From: Candidatus Bathyarchaeia archaeon
Lineage (GTDB): Archaea > Thermoproteota > Bathyarchaeia > Bathyarchaeales > Bathycorpusculaceae
Assembly (NCBI GenBank): GCA_049516875.1
Contig: JBEKSS010000001.1
Location: 224,001 to 288,000, forward strand
Reading direction: 5' to 3'
Length of the DNA: 64,000 nucleotides
Of this stretch, positions 6,912 through 19,107 are shown one piece after another (the first letter of the stretch is position 1; every line of letters begins with the position of its first letter). Made by a program: the position numbers and the translations under genes. The notes beneath the pieces are model-generated. The model ran no database searches and was not told the origin of the DNA. It saw only the letters and a list, made by a program, of their open reading frames with translations.

Positions 6912-7184
6912 CGCTTAATCAAGCAGATAAGCTTCAAGACACTGCGACATTGGAAAGCTACTATGGAGTATCAGCGAACAAAAGACATTCTTCACGTCAT
7001 GAACGTACTCGGCCACAAGAACATCAAGAACACCCTTATCTACACGCACATGGTGAACTTGGAAGGCGACGAATACGTCTCAAAAGCCGCATGGAACCTC
7101 GAAGAAGCATGCAAGCTTGTGGACGATGGCTTCGACTACGTGACAGACATGGAAGGAGTCAAACTCTTCAGAAAACGCAAGTAA
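6912..7184 (+). pseudogene. Tyrosine integrase C-terminal fragment
   Basis: In-frame RLIKQISFKTLRHWKATMEY...LGHKNIKNTLIYTH carries the xxLRH, LGH and catalytic Tyr motifs. The N-terminal part is missing and the break lies at AGCGCGCGCT 6906-6915. Confidence 0.88.
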
Positions 7185-7214
7185 CATGCATTAGGGGGGT
7201 TCATCCAAAAACAT

Positions 7215-7274
7215 GTTGAAGGTGCGGGGGATGGGGTTTGAACCCATGCAGCCCTACGGCAACAGGTTTCTTAA
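7215..7274 (-). repeat. tRNA-Leu(TAA) 3' half (degenerate), att scar copy 2
   Basis: Reverse complement TTAAGAAACCTGTTGCCGTAGGGCTGCATGGGTTCAAACCCCATCCCCCGCACC covers the anticodon loop, long variable arm, T-arm and acceptor strand. No 5' half is present. Confidence 0.85.
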
Positions 7275-7511
7275 AACGGTGTCTGTTCCAACCAAACTGG
7301 TTTTTCTTTTCTGGGCAACGTTTTCCTAAGCCTGTCTCCTTTGGCCAAACTCGGACACCCCCGCGGATTGAGAGGGGTTCAGATGCTGAATCAGTATCTT
7401 CTTTTATATTTGTTTGGTCTTCCAAGGATGACATCCTAGTTTTGGTCTTCCTAAGGGTTATATTTGCTCAAATATCTATAATCAAATGGCAACAGCTCGG
7501 AGAAAGGCGAA

Positions 7512-8273: not shown

Positions 8274-8362
8274 CGGAAGCTTCTTTCGTGAAAGAAACTT
8301 TCAAGAGAGCACGCGCGCAGATTTATCTACACCTTGAGAATCATGAAATACAGGGATGTTGG

Positions 8363-9922: not shown

Positions 9923-10183
9923 TTGTGTGGTCCTAACTTGGAAAGCGGTCAGCGCAAGTTTACTTTAGAAGAGTTGAAGCAGTATGACGGTAAGGAGGGC
10001 AGGCCTGCCTACATTGCCTACAAAGGCAAGGTCTATGATGTCACGGACAACTTTTTGTGGATAGATGGAGATCATCAGGGTGAACATGCGGCGGGCAAAG
10101 ATTTGACCGGAGCAATGGCAAACGCTCCTCACGGCGAAGAATACCTCGAAAGAGTCAAACTCATCGGCGTGCTCGTCCCCTAA
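9923..10183 (+). CDS. Cytochrome b5-like heme/steroid-binding protein
   Basis: FTLEELKQYDGKEGRPAYIAYKGKVYDVT...HAAGKDLT...APHG. Confidence 0.9.
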   Translation: MCGPNLESGQRKFTLEELKQYDGKEGRPAYIAYKGKVYDVTDNFLWIDGDHQGEHAAGKDLTGAMANAPHGEEYLERVKLIGVLVP

Positions 10184-10465
10184 CTTCAAGAGACCGCGGC
10201 ATCGACCCGTCTCTAAACTCGCAGCCCAGAAACCCGTTGAAACTTCCTTCCGTAAATCCCATACAACATACACGCACACGGCGAGAGTGCATGAGAAGTA
10301 TTTGTTAAATTTAGTGAGCAGCGAGCACTAGGCCTTACAACGACTCTCTGGACGATTTGTTGCCTCGGCGTTTATATGATTCCCTGTCCATTTGGTTTCA
10401 ATGATGTTTTTCCTTGCAGACAGACTTTTTAGTTGGTTTCGCCATCTACGAGTATTCGTGGTTGC

Positions 10466-10813
10466 ATGGCTGATAAAATTGAGGTTTACATTAGGAATGA
10501 AGAGGTTGTAACCGGTGAGGCTGTCTATGGGAAAGTCGTTGCAGAACACGGATGCCCTGTCGTAAGAGGTGTCAAAACTGAAAAAGTCATGCCTGAAGCC
10601 GATAGAACGGCTCTCGACGTTGTAAACCGTTTCGCAGATGACAAGGGATTGCAAGTCGAAATCTGCAGCCTCGGCACGTTTACTGGAAGATTGAAGGCTA
10701 GGCAGAAGGGGGTTAAGACGACACCCACGATAGTGATTGGCAAGTTCAGAATTGAAGGAGAACTCACTCCAGAACTGTTAAGAAGCAAGTTAGAATTAGC
10801 CTTGAAAGAATAG
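10466..10813 (+). CDS. Thioredoxin-fold-like hypothetical protein
   Basis: GVKTTPTIVIG cis-Pro-type motif, no CxxC. Confidence 0.6.
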   Translation: MADKIEVYIRNEEVVTGEAVYGKVVAEHGCPVVRGVKTEKVMPEADRTALDVVNRFADDKGLQVEICSLGTFTGRLKARQKGVKTTPTIVIGKFRIEGELTPELLRSKLELALKE

Positions 10814-10881
10814 TCTGAGTTACGGCTCGTTTCGACAGCTACGGGAATGAGGGTAGTGGGGAAAGTAGCGGGTTGAGAGGA

Positions 10882-10971
10882 GAAAGTTTGGTTTTGGATA
10901 AAACTGTACCGCACTACTCAAGTCATTCACACACGGGTAAAGTTTAGGTTTGGGATAAAACTTTACCCCAC
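10882..10971. repeat. Tandem imperfect ~32-bp repeat containing an 11-bp inverted repeat
   Basis: AAAGTTTGGTTTTGGATAAAACTGTACCGCAC and AAAGTTTAGGTTTGGGATAAAACTTTACCCCAC. The second copy forms GGGTAAAGTTT-N12-AAACTTTACCC. Confidence 0.7.
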
Positions 10972-11173
10972 CAACCAACCACTACCACAACCCACACCGC
11001 AACCTCTGCCTATCTGCACTCCTGCCACTGCACCTACCACTCCTCCTATACCTACCTATACCAGCACACACACGCACGCACACGGCGAGTGTGTGAGTGA
11101 AGCGCGCGTCTCCGAACGGCGAGGTCACCAGGTCTCTCCAAAATCCCCATTTTTATCTTTACTGAGGCGCACG

Positions 11174-11938
11174 CTACTCTTCAGAAATAGTCTCTATGAT
11201 AGCTTTCAAGAGGACCTCTGTGCTCTCTCTGACTGACTGGTCTCCAAAAGCTAGCTGCCACCCATTCTCAGTCAAGATATCAGAGATAACCTGCGCTGAA
11301 GCAGCCCTAACATTCCTGTATTTCGCAATTGCGAAAACAGCCGACGTCTCCATGTCCACCGCCAAGATTCCGGTTTCTTTGAACTTTCGAAGTTTTCCTC
11401 GGGTTTCTCTATAAGCTCCATCAGTCGACCAGACAGGGCCAATGAAGTGTCTGATTCTCTTCTCCTTCAGATGCTCAACTAGCTTGTCTCTAAGTGGAAT
11501 GTCGGACTCAACTTCCACTTCTGGTGAGAAATAATGGTGTGAGGTTCCCTCATCGCGAATCGCTCCAGTTACGACAACAATGTCGCCTGGTTGAAGGTAA
11601 GACTGTATTCCACCTGAGACGCCAACTTCAAAAACAGTCTTTGCACCACATGCGATGGCTTCCTCCAACGTGAAACCGGCTGCAGGAGCTCCTATCCAGA
11701 AGCGGCCAACTCCGACTTCTAAGCCGTCTACCTGTCCAACGCAGAAAGGCTGGCTTTCACCATAAAGCCATTCAACGCATTTTCCTTTGATCAGGTTTCT
11801 TGCACATTCAAACGTGCTTCTCTGGTAAGTCAATACAAGGCGCTGAGGGATTCCTAGCGATTCTATCGAGACCTTTTTGCTTTTGGCAGCATAGCTGACG
11901 ACATCAGATGGCTTGGAAACGGACTCGTCGTCGCTCAA
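11174..11938 (-). CDS. Nucleoside phosphorylase (PNP/UDP family)
   Basis: IGAPAA, AIRDEGTSHHY, WSTDGAYRET, VDMETSA. Confidence 0.92.
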   Translation of the reverse strand: MSDDESVSKPSDVVSYAAKSKKVSIESLGIPQRLVLTYQRSTFECARNLIKGKCVEWLYGESQPFCVGQVDGLEVGVGRFWIGAPAAGFTLEEAIACGAKTVFEVGVSGGIQSYLQPGDIVVVTGAIRDEGTSHHYFSPEVEVESDIPLRDKLVEHLKEKRIRHFIGPVWSTDGAYRETRGKLRKFKETGILAVDMETSAVFAIAKYRNVRAASAQVISDILTENGWQLAFGDQSVRESTEVLLKAIIETISEE

Positions 11939-12152
11939 TTCTCTCTCTACCCTTGCACTAATCTATCTGGTATGGTTCAGCTATATCCTTTCCGTACCAC
12001 TCCGCTGCGAACACCTGCTGTTTTGTCCAAGCAAAACATGAACAATCCCCTTTTCTTCTTAGCAACATGGCTTCAAACTGAAAACCACATATTTTTGCGA
12101 GAATTTCCCTAGGAAGAGCCTGTTGGACGCATAACATACGTGCCATGTTCTA

Positions 12153-12210
12153 GGTGCGGGGGGTGGGATTCGAACCCCCGCCACAGTGGCGACGTCTCCC
12201 GCAAAATCCC
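12153..12210 (-). repeat. tRNA-Leu 3'-end att scar, copy 3, plus arm
   Basis: GGTGCGGGGGGTGGGATTCGAACCC followed by the AGTGGCGACGTCTCCCGCAA arm motif. Confidence 0.8.
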
Positions 12211-12389
12211 TTTTTTCTTTTTTGCAGAAATAAATTGAGCCAACCAACTACGCCACGAACATTCGATGAAGCCTCCGAAAATGCGGGTGCTCTTTTTTTT
12301 GAGAACGATAGATTGAAATCGCACCTCTAATCATTTAGAATTGTTGGACGTGGTGTAAGCTGAATTCTAAGCTTCCGGCCGAGCCAATT

Positions 12390-15065
12390 TTGGTGGGCAG
12401 GGACCAAGAAATCAAACAGTTTACACAATACTTTGACTCTGCCATGAGGGGAAAGGGAGCCACCATATTCGCTTGTGGTGAGGCGGGAGTCGGAAAGACA
12501 AGACTGGTCAATGAGTTTTTGAACCAAGCAAAGAAAAAAGGAGCAAAAATTCTTCAGGGCTATTGCTTGAGCGAGGTGGACATACCCTACTTTCCTTTTA
12601 CAGAGGCATTTAACACCTATATGTCAGCGATGAGTGATGAAAAGGCGAAATCCTCCGTGACAAAGCAGCTGGGAATTACAGGATGGCTGAGAGGGTCTGG
12701 AATCACACGTGAAGCGAAAGCAAGTGAACTCTTTTCAACTCCAGAAATAGAACGAGACAGAACGTTTGAGGCAGTGGCAAGAGTTCTCCTTCAGCTGTCC
12801 ACTCAAGAACCATTAATCCTGTTTCTGGATGACTTGCAGTGGGCAGACCACCTAAGCTTGGCTATACTTCACTACTTGGCAAGGAAGTGTAGAAACTCTC
12901 GGCTTCTCATAATCGGCACGTATAGACCAGAAGACCTTGTTCACACTAAAGAAGAGAAACTCCATCCACTAGAAGAAATCATGTTTTCGATGAGTCGAGA
13001 AGACCTATTGGTTAAAATGGAGTTGAAACGCTTAAGGCGAAACGATTTCCCAGACTTTTTACGGTCAATCTTTCACTCTTCATTGGATGAAGCATTCGTA
13101 GAAAAACTGTATGAGGAAACTGAAGGCAACCCTTTTTTTGCGGTTGAGACGCTAAACCTCCTTGTAGAAGAAGGTTTCCTTTCAGAAAAAGAGGGTCGCT
13201 GGATGCTAATGGCTCCAACGGAGAAAATCGGAATACCTTCAAAGGTTCACGATGTCATCATTCGGAGAATCGCGAGACTCGAACGAGAAGAAAGAAAACT
13301 ATTGGACCTCGCCGCAGTCTGCGGTCATTCCTTCACTCCAGACACCCTAAGCAGAACCTTAGCTCTAGACATAGCCGATGTTCTGCAAGAACTGGTGGAG
13401 ATTGAACAGAGACACCGACTAATACGCTCCACTGACACAACATTTGAATTCACACACCAAAAAATAAGAGAAGTCATATACTCAAACTTGCCAGGCGAGT
13501 TAAGGAGAGTATACCATCTCAAAACGGCAAATTGCCTCGAACAAGCCCTCACCGAAAGAACTTCAGACGGTTACATAGCTGACATAGCCCTTCACTACGT
13601 CGAAGGAGCAGCTCCAGAGAAAGCGTTCGAATATCTTCTCAAACTTGGCGAAAAAGCTGTAAACATCTTTGCAAACATGCAAGCAATAGATTATCTAGAC
13701 AAGGCATTAGAAGCCACACAGAAAAATGCAAACCTTGCCCAGGGTGAAAATCTTGTTGAAATCTACAAGCTCAGAGGCAGAGCTTGGCTGAGTCAAGGAG
13801 AAATGGCAAAAGCTAGCAACGATTTCAATTTGTTGCTACAAAATGCTACTTCCATCGGTGATGAATCAATGATTGCAGAAGCGCACTATTGGCTAGGTTA
13901 TGCTCTAACGGGGCTAGGAAAAATAGATGAGGCTAAGCTACATCTTACAAGAGCGCTGGAAATCGCGCGAAAGATAGGCAATAAACACGTTGAAGCTGGA
14001 AGTCTACTTCAACTTGTCGAATCGCTCTTTGTATACGCAGACACCATGGAAGAAGCTCTTATGCAAATTGAAGAGTCGCTTAGAATATGTAGAGAGATAA
14101 CGGACAGAGTCCTCGAAGCCAAATGCCTCGGTTACCTCGGATTCTACTATGACTGGAAAGGCGAGTTCAAGCAAGCCAAAAAAAACATCAATGAGGCGTT
14201 GGCGTTAGCTGAGGAAATGGACGATAACCCCGGAAAAATGTGGGCATTATTGCTTTCGGGCATGGTTCATGCTGGTGAAGGGGAATACGATGATGCCATT
14301 TCAATCTTACAAAGATGTCTCCAACTCTCCCGAGATTGGGGCATTGTTTTTTTCGTTCCGCGAGCCCTCAATGTCCTCGGTTGGATTTATCATGACTTAG
14401 GAGACATCGAATTTGCAATTAAATACAACAACGAAGGACTAAAAATTACCAGAATACACCAAGAGAGTATGGGCATATCCGGAGTGCAGCTAGCTTGTTT
14501 AGTAAATCTAGGAATGGACTATCTACACAAGAACGATTATGGAAATGCAAAGAAGTACTTCCAAGAAGCAAACAGCGTGATTCATTTACATCCAATGGCT
14601 AAGTGGCGTTTCGAAACTCGTATACTTCTAGGTCTCGTTGAAATATCACTCGCTGAGGGCGATTATTCACAAGCACTAAAATTCGGTGAAGACTCTTTAG
14701 CCATATCTGAAAAGGCAGGCGCCAAAAAATACATATCCAAAAGTTTGAAGTTAAAAGCTGAAATACTCGCAAAAATGGGCAAAACCGAGGAAGCAATCGA
14801 GCTAATGCAGAACGCCTTGAAATTTGCACAAGAGGTTGGCAACCCACCGCTCCTTTGGCAAACACATTATTCTCTCGGGCTTTTGCTCGAAAAACAAGGT
14901 AACCTACAAAAAGCCAATGAACACTATGCCCAGGCCATAGCCCGCATGGAAGAGACAGCATCAAAACTCAAAGATGAATCCCTTAAGAACAGTCTGTTAA
15001 CGGCTCAACAGACAAAGGCAATATACGACGCTTACGCCAAAACAAAACCGACTTCTAACACCTAA
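12390..15065 (+). CDS. STAND-type (AAA_16) ATPase with C-terminal TPR repeats
   Basis: VGRDQE, Walker A GEAGVGKT, Walker B LFLDDLQWAD, TEGNPFF, FTHQKIRE and a long TPR array. Confidence 0.92.
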   Translation: MVGRDQEIKQFTQYFDSAMRGKGATIFACGEAGVGKTRLVNEFLNQAKKKGAKILQGYCLSEVDIPYFPFTEAFNTYMSAMSDEKAKSSVTKQLGITGWLRGSGITREAKASELFSTPEIERDRTFEAVARVLLQLSTQEPLILFLDDLQWADHLSLAILHYLARKCRNSRLLIIGTYRPEDLVHTKEEKLHPLEEIMFSMSREDLLVKMELKRLRRNDFPDFLRSIFHSSLDEAFVEKLYEETEGNPFFAVETLNLLVEEGFLSEKEGRWMLMAPTEKIGIPSKVHDVIIRRIARLEREERKLLDLAAVCGHSFTPDTLSRTLALDIADVLQELVEIEQRHRLIRSTDTTFEFTHQKIREVIYSNLPGELRRVYHLKTANCLEQALTERTSDGYIADIALHYVEGAAPEKAFEYLLKLGEKAVNIFANMQAIDYLDKALEATQKNANLAQGENLVEIYKLRGRAWLSQGEMAKASNDFNLLLQNATSIGDESMIAEAHYWLGYALTGLGKIDEAKLHLTRALEIARKIGNKHVEAGSLLQLVESLFVYADTMEEALMQIEESLRICREITDRVLEAKCLGYLGFYYDWKGEFKQAKKNINEALALAEEMDDNPGKMWALLLSGMVHAGEGEYDDAISILQRCLQLSRDWGIVFFVPRALNVLGWIYHDLGDIEFAIKYNNEGLKITRIHQESMGISGVQLACLVNLGMDYLHKNDYGNAKKYFQEANSVIHLHPMAKWRFETRILLGLVEISLAEGDYSQALKFGEDSLAISEKAGAKKYISKSLKLKAEILAKMGKTEEAIELMQNALKFAQEVGNPPLLWQTHYSLGLLLEKQGNLQKANEHYAQAIARMEETASKLKDESLKNSLLTAQQTKAIYDAYAKTKPTSNT

Positions 15066-15091
15066 GGAAAAGCGACCCCAAATTTGCAGGG

Positions 15092-15150
15092 TGGTGCGGG
15101 GGATGGGGTTTGAACCCGTCTCCGAGTGGCGATGCCTCCCGAAATCCGCC
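15092..15150 (-). repeat. tRNA-Leu 3'-end att scar, copy 4 (with CCA), plus arm
   Basis: Shares GGTGCGGGGGATGGGGTTTGAACCCGTCTCCGAGTGGCGATG with copy 1. Confidence 0.85.
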
Positions 15151-15332
15151 ATCACATGACCGTTTTCTTCTGAGAAAAGAAAGGTCAAACTGGCTTAAAA
15201 GGACCGATAGAGGATAATTCTACAATTTTCTCCCATTTACTCGGAAGCAGTTCCCTTTGCTTTTTCTGTGTATTTTACAACACCCAGTTCTTCGTATATT
15301 TCCAACAAGTTTGAGGCTCCCCAATTAAGCTG

Positions 15333-16001
15333 TTATTTTAACTCAAAAGTATGGACAGTCTTGAGTTTTGGATGTTTCTTGAATAAATGAGCGTTCACTA
15401 GCTCTATGGAATCAACAGTCATTTTTCCAAACTCTGTATCCCTCAGCTTTTCTAGGTAGCTGATTAGTCTGGTGAAATCTTCTTTCTTCTGAAAATGCAT
15501 TATGCTGATGTGAGGCAAAAAACTTGGATAATCAAATTTCCTCTTTCTTATCTCGGGTATTGCCTGCAGTCTTCTATGTATCTCTTCAATCTTGTCCCCA
15601 TCATGAACCTCCACAAAGACAACATCTGGGAAAATGTTGAGTTTAGAAAGGAATACATCAAATTTGCTGAATTGTTGTAAAACTTCTTTCGCTTGATTGA
15701 TTATTCTCTGCAAGTTCTCAACCAAAATATCGTCTTCATATTCTTCTGATTTTGCCAAGAATCCAAGCCCCATTACAGATATGTGAAAATAGTCTTTCGG
15801 GAAGGGAGCAACACAAGAAATAGTGGATAGCCACCTCTGAATCTCAACTATCTTCTCAATCAGTCCCGCATCTCTAATCCTTACATGAAAAGTCAGATAT
15901 TGATTTCTTCCTTTAGCCCATTCATTGTCAACCCAATATTTCGTTAGATTCAATTGGACGTTCTTTCTTCTTTCCCAAACATCTGTAAATCTGTCGCTCA
16001 T
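15333..16001 (-). CDS. 2H phosphoesterase (2'-5' RNA ligase/LigT-like)
   Basis: Two HxS motifs: YFHISV and LPHISI. Confidence 0.85.
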   Translation of the reverse strand: MSDRFTDVWERRKNVQLNLTKYWVDNEWAKGRNQYLTFHVRIRDAGLIEKIVEIQRWLSTISCVAPFPKDYFHISVMGLGFLAKSEEYEDDILVENLQRIINQAKEVLQQFSKFDVFLSKLNIFPDVVFVEVHDGDKIEEIHRRLQAIPEIRKRKFDYPSFLPHISIMHFQKKEDFTRLISYLEKLRDTEFGKMTVDSIELVNAHLFKKHPKLKTVHTFELK

Positions 16002-16258
16002 ACATTCAATTGACAGTCTTTCTTACCTAAAGTCTTTTTGAACTATGCGGTTCAGCTATAACTTTTCCGCAAAATCGAAAGTTCTTTTAGGACTCGGTGA
16101 CACTCTTCTCGTAAGACAAAGATGGAAACCTGAAAATTAACCAGTTGGTTAAAAAATGGCACATGCAGTTAACGCGCGCGCCTGCTCATGGCGGGGTGCC
16201 ACTGGCCATGGCGATGGCACTGGAGGTGTGTAGGTCTTACGGAGCTCCGCTTTATGGC

Positions 16259-16987
16259 CTATTGCGAGGGTCGTTTTGAGCCAGGCTTCGGCAGGAAGCA
16301 TGTCTCCGTAGCCAATGACCCATATATCTTCTTGATAAGTCGCAACCCCGATTTGCGATCCAGGCCCGGCTTCCAGCACCTTGCCAACAGGTCCCGTGCT
16401 TTCATGTCTCCGTAGCCAATCGCCCAAGCGTCACACTCGGCCTGAGATCCCAGTACGTCTATGTCAGCAATCTTCTGGACCCCGTCGTCAAACCCTCCGA
16501 GGAGAACGAAGAGAGCAAGCGGTCGGTTGACCGTGCTCACCGCGTGCTCGTGGAGGATGCCCCGAATCCTGTGTGCTGCATCCCTGAATGTCTGGATGTC
16601 CTCGCTCGTAAGCACATCATGAACATGGAACATGTCTCCCTTATTGCCAGTGGCCACGAACGCCAGCGATTGGGCTACGTGCCAGACCGAAGGAATCTCG
16701 CTCCTCAATCCTGGCTTGACAGAAGCTTTCCCTTTGGCTATGAGCAGCCCATCCGTCGTCTTCATCGCGATAGCGAGGTTGCCGCCTGATGGACACTTCC
16801 GTGCCCACTCCACCTGGAGCAGTCTCCCCTCTGGCGTGAACATGCCGGGCTTGGCAAACTCCGAGCTCTCGGGAAGCGGCTGGTATTTGCTCGGCGTTCC
16901 AATGCATGGTTTTGCCCTAGCCATCGAACTCACCTGTTGAATGAATGCGCGATGCGTTATTTCAAGCTTTTTCTGCCATCCTTCCAC
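16259..16987 (-). CDS. Divergent proteasome alpha-subunit-like protein, possibly 5'-truncated
   Basis: MFTPEGRLLQVEWA...AIAMKTTDGLLIA matches the alpha N-terminal signature. RPLALFVLLGG and AWAIGYG also match. The segment is visibly more GC-rich than its flanks. Confidence 0.75.
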   Translation of the reverse strand: MEGWQKKLEITHRAFIQQVSSMARAKPCIGTPSKYQPLPESSEFAKPGMFTPEGRLLQVEWARKCPSGGNLAIAMKTTDGLLIAKGKASVKPGLRSEIPSVWHVAQSLAFVATGNKGDMFHVHDVLTSEDIQTFRDAAHRIRGILHEHAVSTVNRPLALFVLLGGFDDGVQKIADIDVLGSQAECDAWAIGYGDMKARDLLARCWKPGLDRKSGLRLIKKIYGSLATETCFLPKPGSKRPSQ

Positions 16988-17091
16988 ACCAAACTGTCTT
17001 TCTCCCGCGCGCGCAAAATCGAGAAAAACCCAGACGGCTTCATAACCGTGAGAAAGGAGGCTTAAACACGGCCTCTTTTTCTTTTTTTAAG

Positions 17092-17286
17092 ATGAGTTTC
17101 AAGAAGCCGCAGGTTATGCTTATGCTTTCCATTGCCGTGTTGATGTTCGCTCTTGACTGGCTTTTTCTTTGGATAGACGATTTGCAGAGACTCAAGAAAG
17201 GAAGGTTAGTCATCAGCGCGCACAAAGGAATGGCGCTTACAATAGAGAAAAATGCGGATAACTCTGCAACCATTCACAAAGCCTAA
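17092..17286 (+). CDS. Small membrane protein (hypothetical)
   Basis: One hydrophobic helix. The start is uncertain. Lies between GCGCGC sites 17007 and 17356. Confidence 0.35.
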   Translation: MSFKKPQVMLMLSIAVLMFALDWLFLWIDDLQRLKKGRLVISAHKGMALTIEKNADNSATIHKA

Positions 17287-17448
17287 GACCCTTCTTTTTT
17301 TGCAACCTCTACATTTTTCAGTCAATCTAACCCTAGCCCCTATACTCCTTTCCTTGCGCGCTAGACATTGAATCCAAAAGCACAGAGCAACCAGAATAAT
17401 TGTTTAAATATGGATTATGTGCAATGAAGATAAAGAGGGACGCGGTTA

Positions 17449-18150
17449 TTGCCCTTCGATGACGCCTTGACTGTTGCAATAATCACGGTAGCGGTGATCA
17501 TCGCTTGTTTAATCGTTGTTTTTTCCATGCGAAGGCGAGGAAAAAAGGAGAAAAAAGCCGCCGAAGAGGAACTGCAGGCTGATCTTAGGGGTTACCCGTT
17601 TAAAGTCAGCAAAAGCGTCCCTGCCGAGGATGCTTCACACGCCAAGGAAGAACTCCGGATATTGGATTTAGAGAGGGAGATTCTAAGCGACGCGATCAGG
17701 CGGCTTTATGAAGCACACGCGGAAGGAAAAATAACGGAAGAAGAGAGAGAAAGGCTTGCACAGACGTACAAGTCTCGAATGATGACGGTGAAGGACGCCA
17801 TTTCGAAAGACGAGTCTGTCGTGGCTTTGCACGAGCTTGAAAACATGCAGCAGGACTTGATGAAACTGTTCAGCGAACGATTCGACGAACTGAGCTCAAA
17901 AATCGAAGAGTTGCGGACAAAGACCGAAATCAAATCGATAAAAGAAATAACCATCGCTTCAAAAGCGTTGACAACGGAAACCCCTGCTTCTGAAGAAAAA
18001 CCAGGGGAAGAAGAGAAGGTCAAAAAGAAGAAGAAACCAGCGCCAGCCAAACCCAGTCCGAGAACAGAAGCAGAGAAAAGAATAGAAGAAATCAGAGCCG
18101 AAGTAGAAAAGGTCCTGGACAAACTGGGGCAGATGGAAATTGAATCCTAA
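17449..18150 (+). CDS. Membrane-anchored coiled-coil hypothetical protein
   Basis: N-terminal TM helix, E/K-rich heptads, overlaps the rpiA start. Confidence 0.8.
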   Translation: MPFDDALTVAIITVAVIIACLIVVFSMRRRGKKEKKAAEEELQADLRGYPFKVSKSVPAEDASHAKEELRILDLEREILSDAIRRLYEAHAEGKITEEERERLAQTYKSRMMTVKDAISKDESVVALHELENMQQDLMKLFSERFDELSSKIEELRTKTEIKSIKEITIASKALTTETPASEEKPGEEEKVKKKKKPAPAKPSPRTEAEKRIEEIRAEVEKVLDKLGQMEIES

Positions 18151-18991: not shown

Positions 18992-19107
18992 GCCGGGGTA
19001 GCCTAGCCTGGCCAGGGCGCCAGACTCATAATCTGGAGAACAATAAACGGGGCACAAAGGCGCCCAGTGTCCAGAAGTCGCGGGCTCGAATCCCGCCCCC
19101 GGCACCA
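18992..19107 (+). tRNA. tRNA-Met(CAT), elongator type, with 38-nt intron (19039-19076) at position 45/46
   Basis: GCCGGGG/CCCCGGC acceptor stem, intact CCAGA-CTCATAA-TCTGG arm, and CTGG/CCAG BHB helix. Splicing restores the AGGTC variable loop. CCA is encoded. Confidence 0.9.

Follow-up and report, generated by a model that had tools for sequence, protein, structure and literature searches.

The question raised by this locus is whether a GC-rich, proteasome-like gene enclosed by two identical 9-mers is a captured piece of foreign DNA, and what the 9-mers are. A sequence-only reading proposed that the segment is a horizontally captured fragment, possibly the C-terminal domain of a larger fusion protein, and took it as the clearest example of capture between GCGCGC runs. 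We argue instead for a self-contained mobile one-gene unit with an alpha-type product, two joints marked by GC runs and a recent transfer, and we think this explanation as a whole is probably right. The unit would consist of a promoter-like box, a Shine-Dalgarno site, a gene of 221 codons and a short 3' tail, and it would be spreading horizontally.

The 9-mers are at the exact positions first given for them, 16173-16181 and 17006-17014. They are the only two copies of CGCGCGCGC within the window, by which we mean the whole 64-kb stretch of DNA that was analysed. The pair encloses 842 nt. The segment (16173-17014) is 57.5% GC, and it is clearly richer than its flanks as had been claimed. These are 36.8% (15333-16001) and 36.3% GC (16002-16172) on the left and 41.7% (17015-17448) on the right, and the whole window is 47.2%. 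The alignment of this shift with the repeats was checked by a two-change-point likelihood scan of 15100-18100. The left change point is exactly 16173 (support interval 16153-16179) and the right one is 16896 (support 16872-17081). The log-likelihood is -2041.02 for 16173-17014 and -2041.01 for the optimum, so the two are indistinguishable and the shift does follow the repeats.

Chance could yield the 9-mer pair by itself, so the pair alone is weak evidence. At least two copies of CGCGCGCGC appear in 7 of 100 dinucleotide shuffles, there are 125 copies genome-wide, and 147 of 2282 ORFs have a GC run within 250 nt on both sides. What gives the pair meaning is that the composition shift, and the break points of homology described below, fall at the same places.

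The joints of the unit

Members of the family were found at 43 metagenome loci. One independent contig (L102) is identical to the window, and it reproduces the window's joints, as do Logan contigs with zero differences. Besides L102, another 33 loci have DNA in common with the window. This DNA is confined to 16198-17007 in 32 of the loci, with 85-97% identity in 27 of the 32. The remaining locus (L103) belongs to a 97.4%-identical strain. There the right flank is also in common, as far as 19107, and homology stops at 16181. In contigs with unrelated flanks homology ends within about 100 nt of the gene. The flanks form 27 distinct clusters upstream and 22 downstream.

The gene is on the minus strand, so the run at 16173-16181 is the joint on its 3' side. 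This is where the L103 homology stops and where the GC change point falls. The run at 17006-17014 is the joint on the 5' side. In two loci (L113 and L121) the alignment extends as far as 17007, and at the place of the window's run their sequence goes on as ...CATCGAGGTCG, which implies that the window copy was cut short at 17007.

Joint positions differ by contig, over 16181-16298 on one side and 16965-17007 on the other. A perfect run lies within 10 nt of 11 of the 27 distinct upstream joints and 6 of the 22 downstream ones, making 17 of 49. At control offsets 60-500 nt further out the count is 9 of 315 (Fisher p = 1.3e-10). The other 32 distinct joints have no perfect run, and several of them carry degenerate ones. 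One locus (L130) has a gene that breaks off at residue 109, and a run lies at the break. The CGCGCGCGC runs of the window are two separate joints of a genus-wide kind.

Two more familiar structures were considered and rejected. A target-site duplication or att repeat does not suit a unit whose ends are not fixed between contigs, and the same type of run is found at unrelated joints. The unit is not itself a TIR transposon or MITE, since it has no inverted repeats at its ends and is flanked by AC/CT and CC/AA. An empty site for just the unit was not found.

The unit is now part of a 7.2-kb strain-specific island (10185-17403) that was not found at this site in the congeners. Two of them (G003 and G004) have only 125-127 nt there. 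In one public run (X7) an abundant related strain has a contig that joins 10262 to 17404 with 217 nt between them, and two more public runs (X8 and X9) have 10189 and 10179 joined to 17404. The window's form is present in public runs at low depth and with zero differences. Besides the proteasome-like unit, the island contains a 126-aa ORF, a PNP_UDP_1 phosphorylase, an AAA_16-TPR protein, a tRNA 3' fragment and a 2'-5' RNA ligase-family gene. The only Rfam matches anywhere in the window are two tRNAs.

The outer borders of the island (10179-10262 and 17404) have no run. Inside it, a 5-kb strain-specific segment (11108-16172) ends on the right at the run at 16173. In L103 about 5 kb (about 11108-16180) is replaced by about 180 nt, with 16181 joined to 11107. 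A GC run is found at both window borders of this indel, a GCGCGCG at 11102-11108 and the 9-mer at 16173-16181, and the X8 and X9 contigs break at 11107/11108. Another GCGCGC run, at 17356-17361, is where homology to G002 begins. A 1.9-kb insertion lies here in that genome and is bounded on each side by GCGCGC; G003 and G004, which have the empty site, lack a run there.

GC runs across the genus

All genomes compared are MAGs. GCGCGC is the most over-represented palindromic hexamer in the window's genome (G000). It occurs 1412 times, against 419 expected from a zero-order model and 924 from a maximal-order Markov model. GCGCGCGC occurs 447 times, and there are 1123 alternating runs of at least 6 nt. 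With genes approximated genome-wide as long ORFs, 69-76% of motif occurrences are in the roughly 18% of the genome outside them, compared to 8-25% for other GC-rich hexamers, and the density of (GC)3-5 runs is about 8 times higher outside genes than within them. The runs mostly start with G and end with C, with an A before in 54% and a T after in 49%. There is no wider context or palindrome around them (23-29% complementarity at positions 2-10). Within intergenic regions they are evenly distributed, and these regions are longer the more runs they contain. Their positions show no peak relative to the starts or stops of genes, which makes them unlikely to act as promoters or terminators.

AGCGCGCGCT shows how restricted this is. 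It occurs 98 times in G000 versus 4 for its control, and 29-115 times in the four congeners. Of the 56 further relatives that were searched, 42 have 0-1 copies, three other genera have 45-63 and one genome of another family has 23. This exposes a genus-wide, lineage-specific mark in an uncultured archaeal group. A passage of PMC4060949 describes GC6 and GC8 patterns as generally suppressed in prokaryotes. Since alternating GC runs would then normally be suppressed, an excess of about 25-fold that is tied to structural-variant joints calls for an enzyme or an element. A limited literature search found no account of such GC runs in archaea.

The runs resemble HIP1 of cyanobacteria, GCGATCGC, which is also a short, GC-rich, hyper-abundant, lineage-specific palindrome. 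Highly iterated palindromes have been linked to horizontal gene transfer in recent work (PMC13756078). The runs here differ from HIP1 in that they vary in length, are 69-76% non-coding and are found at rearrangement joints. They also differ from HIP-like palindromes in that no C5 methyltransferase (PF00145) was found in the run-bearing genus.

The tie to rearrangement joints comes from comparing G002 with G004, which are about 95% identical, over two syntenic regions. A perfect run is present at one or more of the four ends in 13 of 21 indels. The expectation is 1.3 if all positions are allowed (p = 2.7e-11) and 4.4 if only non-ORF positions are (p = 5.4e-5). Two deletions could be polarized with G000 as the outgroup. 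In the first, G002 lost 2.55 kb that is kept in G004 and G000, and the joint is CACGCGC, which is only partly alternating. In the second, 313 coding nt of G002 were replaced by the 7 nt CGCGCGC with the frame kept. Neither ancestral edge has a run in either case. A derived truncation in G004, of a gene that is intact in the window and G002, has GCGCGC at its joint. Within the aligned blocks of G002 and G004 there are 0 runs that are a clean stand-alone indel. About 24 run sites are common to the two genomes, and 22 differ by substitution or complex change. The absence of stand-alone indels means the runs arise with large rearrangements and are not simple footprints. We propose that insertions, deletions and replacements in this genus would commonly carry a (GC)3-5 run at the break.

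An all-against-all count of block ends has a run at 40 of 237 against 1.8% at random, a figure that is inseparable from the intergenic enrichment. Block ends relative to the congeners that are about 80% identical are too fuzzy for a joint test.

The idea of GCGCGC-bounded capture survives in part. Runs do mark the joints of captures and rearrangements, as seen for the unit, the 5-kb indel and 13 of 21 indels. However, only 2 of 45 high-GC ORFs are bounded by runs versus 90 of 1594 typical ORFs. High-GC ORFs are not flanked by runs more often than others, so the capture of GC-rich DNA between GC runs is not a general rule.

What writes the runs

We consider two processes, a transposon-linked one and end-joining filler, either of which may have written the runs. 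In the first, a transposon family that has GCGCGC termini and duplicates TA would have left the runs as its ends and excision footprints, and it would have moved or rearranged the unit and other segments by pack-MITE-like capture or aberrant transposition. There is such a family. G000 has a MITE of about 200 nt with TIRs GCGCGCATGCNTGTTCCTAAAT, and among its 10 aligned full copies the adjoining dinucleotide is TA in 8 on the left and in 8 on the right. TIR-like ends number 42 forward and 38 reverse, and MITE-like inner sequence is found at 54 of 417 runs. TA is beside 123 of these 417 runs on the left and 139 on the right, where the genome frequency of TA is 4.2%. A 1971-nt copy (G000:C1:76833-78803) has ORFs between its TIRs, one G002 insertion ends in a MITE TIR, and a full MITE lies beside the unit in L103. 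In its GCGCGC termini, TA flanks and one cargo copy the family is like Tc1/mariner-IS630-type elements and pack-MITEs.

The unit does not fit this scenario so well. It differs from those elements in having neither TIRs nor a TA duplication and in being bounded by bare runs. There is no TIR beyond the run, and the window joints have no TA flanks. The lack of clean stand-alone run indels between G002 and G004 also argues against excision footprints. No transposase is tied to the TIRs, and the only IS630-type DDE_3 (PF13358) match of the genus, G004:C58, does not have GC-run ends. Still, the MITE family and the TA flanks at about 30% of runs per side favour a transposon link. We put this scenario at somewhat under an even chance.

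One can also imagine that the runs are de novo filler at joined broken ends. A lineage-specific form of end joining would add self-complementary alternating GC to the ends, which would let any two of them anneal. The two polarized deletions are what this predicts, because filler is absent from both ancestral edges and one deletion goes from 313 nt to 7 nt in frame. Runs at joints inside genes, a variable run length (6-10 nt), the lack of a sequence context outside positions -1 and +1, growth of intergenic length with run number and the patchy distribution of AGCGCGCGCT among genera all point the same way. Against it, no candidate enzyme tracks run density among the 60 relatives. Ku (PF02735) is present in G000, G002 and G004, but it is missing from run-rich genomes (G003, G021, G028, G035 and G055) and present in run-poor ones (G010, G020, G026 and G052). 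The PolX palm (PF14792), reverse transcriptase (PF00078) and C5 methyltransferase do not track the runs, and the same is true of DDE_3. A transposon is the better fit to the TA bias and the MITE termini. We think filler is rather unlikely to be the answer.

A broader proposal can be made tentatively, and we suspect it will turn out to be wrong at least in part. A dedicated joining process might write the (GC)3-5 palindrome at sealed ends and at the limits of mobile DNA, in this genus and a few scattered relatives. The roughly 1,100 scars per genome would then be seams for the exchange of single transcription units between species. If true, this would be a gene-cassette system without a described counterpart. 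Integron cassettes are one comparison, as they are also single-gene units found in many contexts with a short recurring site between them. The unit differs from them in having its own promoter-like region and joints that vary by tens of bases, and a generic repeat scan shows no attC-like structure.

Horizontal spread among the Bathyarchaeia

Whatever wrote the runs, the unit could in principle be an old paralogue that was inherited vertically and lost from most lineages, with GC runs flanking it by chance. The number of ORFs with runs on both sides (147 of 2282) makes a chance flanking conceivable, and the 9-mer pair is not significant alone. Some copies of the gene are also close to the GC of their hosts, at 46.7% (L126) and 45.2% (L128). 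The distribution of the gene makes this scenario very unlikely. It is found in 0 of 60 relatives at E<=1e-20 (4 congeners with a completeness of 77-99%, another 32 genomes from the family and 24 from the order). In 185,579 species genomes, close relatives are present in only 2 records besides the window's genome. These are at 89% (L022) and 77% (L023) identity and are labelled Bathyarchaeia or Bathyarchaeota.

The divergence of the copies also argues against vertical descent. The dS between the window copy and other copies is 0.056-0.26, yet the flanks of the loci are only 66-88% identical to G000 and map to scattered places in it. Vertical descent must also account for 27 upstream and 22 downstream flank contexts and for break points that coincide with runs. 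The median dN/dS over 225 pairs is 0.31. The sequence-only reading was thus right to call the segment foreign and horizontally captured, and horizontal spread of this patchily distributed gene among the Bathyarchaeia is well supported.

The base composition gives some indication of the source. In the 31 close loci with measurable flanks (besides L102) GC is 50-57.5% in the gene and 38-54% in the flanks. In G000 only 22 of 2307 ORFs reach at least 56% GC. More distant relatives, at 42-48% identity, are on contigs of 61-67% GC with matching flanks. The comparison supports the view that the gene was recently transferred out of a pool of higher GC, between Bathyarchaeia whose flanking DNA differs by 15-30%. 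This direction is a putative one read from an unrooted comparison. The gene would have come from a higher-GC gene pool, made recent moves between Bathyarchaeia and ended up in the strain-specific island.

A vehicle for the transfer was not found: viral contigs gave 38 pattern matches to relatives with 0 confirmed, and no relatives were found in phage records. It must be noted that one cluster of relatives comes from high-GC contigs named 'Euryarchaeota archaeon'.

The gene is complete

The frame was said to stay open up to the right-hand junction, and it does. The long minus-strand ORF is 16259-16987 and the frame is open through the joint. The gene itself is shorter. A word-indexed search over proteins of 133-424 aa found 61 relatives, 58 of them at 63-99% identity. 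Of these 61, 30 are 217-224 aa. The aligned homologues begin at a Met that corresponds to residue 22 of the long ORF, and the C-terminus is common to them too. Directly upstream of this ATG is GGTGA, at 16930-16934. By these comparisons the gene is an intact, stand-alone one that runs from 16924 to 16259 on the minus strand, with 221 codons and a stop.

The region before the start is best read as a 5' leader and promoter-like region (16925-16977, minus strand), with a putative AGAAAAAGCTTGAAATAA box at 16957-16974 and the GGTGA as a putative Shine-Dalgarno site. This stretch is conserved at the DNA level yet has net 1-nt indels in five distinct loci (L022/L108, L111, L123, L124 and L125), which means that it is non-coding. 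All joints upstream of the gene are at or beyond about 16965. On the other side is the 3' tail of the unit (16182-16258, minus strand), whose conserved length varies by contig with homology to the window ending anywhere from 16181 to 16298.

The claim of about 45 extra N-terminal residues is not confirmed, given the length of the homologues, their start at the residue-22 Met and the non-coding stretch upstream. One might still expect a frame that is open past the joint from a fragment or from the C-terminal domain of a larger fusion protein, but we find that reading hardly credible when homologues of 217-224 aa are so common in a search that extended from 133 to 424 aa, when the start and stop are the same as in about 60 relatives, and when the upstream indels and the GGTGA immediately before the ATG are considered.

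A divergent alpha-type subunit

The product matches the Pfam Proteasome family PF00227 with E 9.3e-13 and 48.7 bits, against a gathering cut-off of 22.4. The alpha-subunit signature that had been noticed, FTPEGRLLQVEWA, is present in the minus-strand ORF. The motif is visible but degenerate, and PF10584, the alpha N-terminal signature, scores 21.8 bits, below its cut-off of 27.7. When the family profile is compared to the PDB, archaeal alpha subunits are at the top (3h4p_A, E 2.8e-25; 1pma_A, 1.1e-23). The AF2 model (pLDDT 85.4, pTM 0.79) has the alpha-specific H0 helix at residues 31-46, before strand S1, and ends after one strand following H4. The best Foldseek matches of this model are alpha chains, with TM 0.70-0.76. 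The profile and structure checks agree on an Ntn/proteasome fold.

The NCBIfam models also prefer alpha to beta, by 48.1 to 26.7 bits. The PsmA cut-offs are far away, with 48.1 versus 219 (NF003075) and 46.3 versus 287.35 (TIGR03633). The host's own alpha scores 297.7 and 281.7 under the same models. With hhalign, residues 27-202 align to residues 20-204 of the 247 in the host alpha at 21% identity. The mobile family has EFAKPG at the position of GAYDRA/GAYDRAI in the host alpha, so the YDR gate motif is absent, and about 40 C-terminal residues are missing. The YDR motif has a role in proteasome gating. Family-invariant residues include CP, GNxGDMF, R121 and H125. A HMMER scan of 1.84 billion representatives gave only 11 matches at E<=1e-10, and canonical proteasome subunits are at 23-30% identity in it. 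This implies that the family is small and remote.

The earlier description as an uncharacterised proteasome-like family does not apply to the fold, which is the ordinary proteasome fold of alpha type. This is a divergent alpha-type paralogue of that fold rather than a wholly uncharacterised one. The homologues described by Fuchs, Alva and Lupas 2021 (PMC8665760) are likewise divergent prokaryotic members of the proteasome superfamily. A term search of that paper found neither 'Bathyarchaeota' nor 'alpha-like'.

With archaeal PsmA, the 20S alpha subunit, the family shares the Ntn/proteasome fold, the H0 helix, the signature FxPxGRLxQVE(W/Y)A and the lack of an exposed catalytic threonine. Lateral self-association would be a further likeness, and for this family it is predicted. 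It differs from PsmA in its 21% identity to the host alpha and its scores below the NCBIfam cut-offs, in having EFAKPG for GAYDRA, about 40 fewer C-terminal residues and its own invariant residues, and in being accessory, patchy and horizontally mobile. The genome already has one ordinary alpha and two beta subunits, which makes the mobile gene an accessory paralogue.

We argue from these models that the product is probably a non-catalytic subunit of the alpha type, divergent and proteasome-like, for which self-association is predicted. It keeps the N-terminal H0 helix, lacks the gate motif and the last 40 or so residues, and would form its own ring. A mobile proteasome subunit is unusual, and this one adds a compact alpha-type paralogue with interface residues of its own. 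An accessory alpha ring could change how the proteasome is gated, or it could have a different role.

A three-copy complex model has an ipSAE of 0.80, and the best of 3 controls has 0.00. Of the proteins used for calibration, 20 of 30 solved as homo-pairs reached the mark, as did 1 of 23 solved as single chains. It must be noted that the pass may reflect likeness to known complexes, because alpha rings are solved structures. Separate runs of the model have 86% or more of the contacts in common, with a partner pLDDT of 83 or higher. The modelled contacts use the invariant R121 and H125 and residues G96-F99, and the most likely arrangement would be a ring of the family's own, of alpha type, held together by family-specific interface residues.

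Repeats in and near the proteasome-like unit

The unit, a proteasome alpha-like gene between two GC runs, has a recurrent 33-nt element, CGGTTCAGCTATAACTTTTCCGCAAAATCGAAA, near it at 16048-16080. This element is repeated both in the window's own genome (G000), with 20 copies of at least 24 nt and at least 85% identity, and at G002:C7 in a congener, where many further copies lie about 450-1400 nt apart. Its borders are the end or switch points of many contigs from two public sequencing runs (X8 and X9). An 11-nt piece of it, CGCAAAATCGA, has a second copy at 17012-17022, adjoining the right-hand GC run. Related copies are also found upstream of the unit at two other loci carrying family members (L117 and L119).

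The 3' part of the proteasome-like gene contains a 24-nt direct repeat (16299-16322 and 16403-16426, 22/24 identical). At locus L121 the DNA between the two repeat copies is absent and the frame is shifted after AIGYGDM. This gene copy is a deletion variant or pseudogene.

GC-run polymorphism, tRNAs and tRNA-like sequences

The GC run at 8312-8318 is polymorphic in length: runs X5 and X7 contain a related strain, an abundant one, in which it is accompanied by 10 additional letters, GCGCGCGAGA. It lies 16 nt past the end of homology with the congeners G002 and G004, after tRNA-Thr, and a window-specific GNAT acetyltransferase gene comes next.

A 25-26 nt copy of a tRNA-like 3' end, GGTGCGGGGGATGGGGTTTGAACC, lies inside the island at 15092-15117. 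The same sequence at 7221-7245 is at the start of a conserved stretch (7194-7421) in which none of the tRNA finders used made a call. The ORF beside this copy (6963-7184) is reminiscent of the C-terminus of a tyrosine recombinase, but it has no match in Pfam. The arrangement may be an old att-type relic.

A 113-nt tRNA at 18992-19104 was called by Rfam (56.5 bits) but missed by ARAGORN, presumably because it contains an intron. Its 3' end is the end of homology (19107) with L103, a 97.4%-identical strain.

MITE-related elements and Ku elsewhere in the genome

A 1971-nt element at G000:C1:76833-78803 has MITE TIRs plus TA at both ends. Its three ORFs, measured stop to stop, have 118-232 codons. 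No transposase is recognizable in the element, which has the appearance of a pack-MITE-type cargo carrier. Elsewhere, at least 5 copies of the MITE form a cluster inside 11 kb (G000:C9:100682-111835). A Ku homologue is encoded at G000:C9:92481-93017 (PF02735, E 1.7e-40). Among the 61 genomes covered by the search, Ku turned up in just 7, including G000, G002 and G004.
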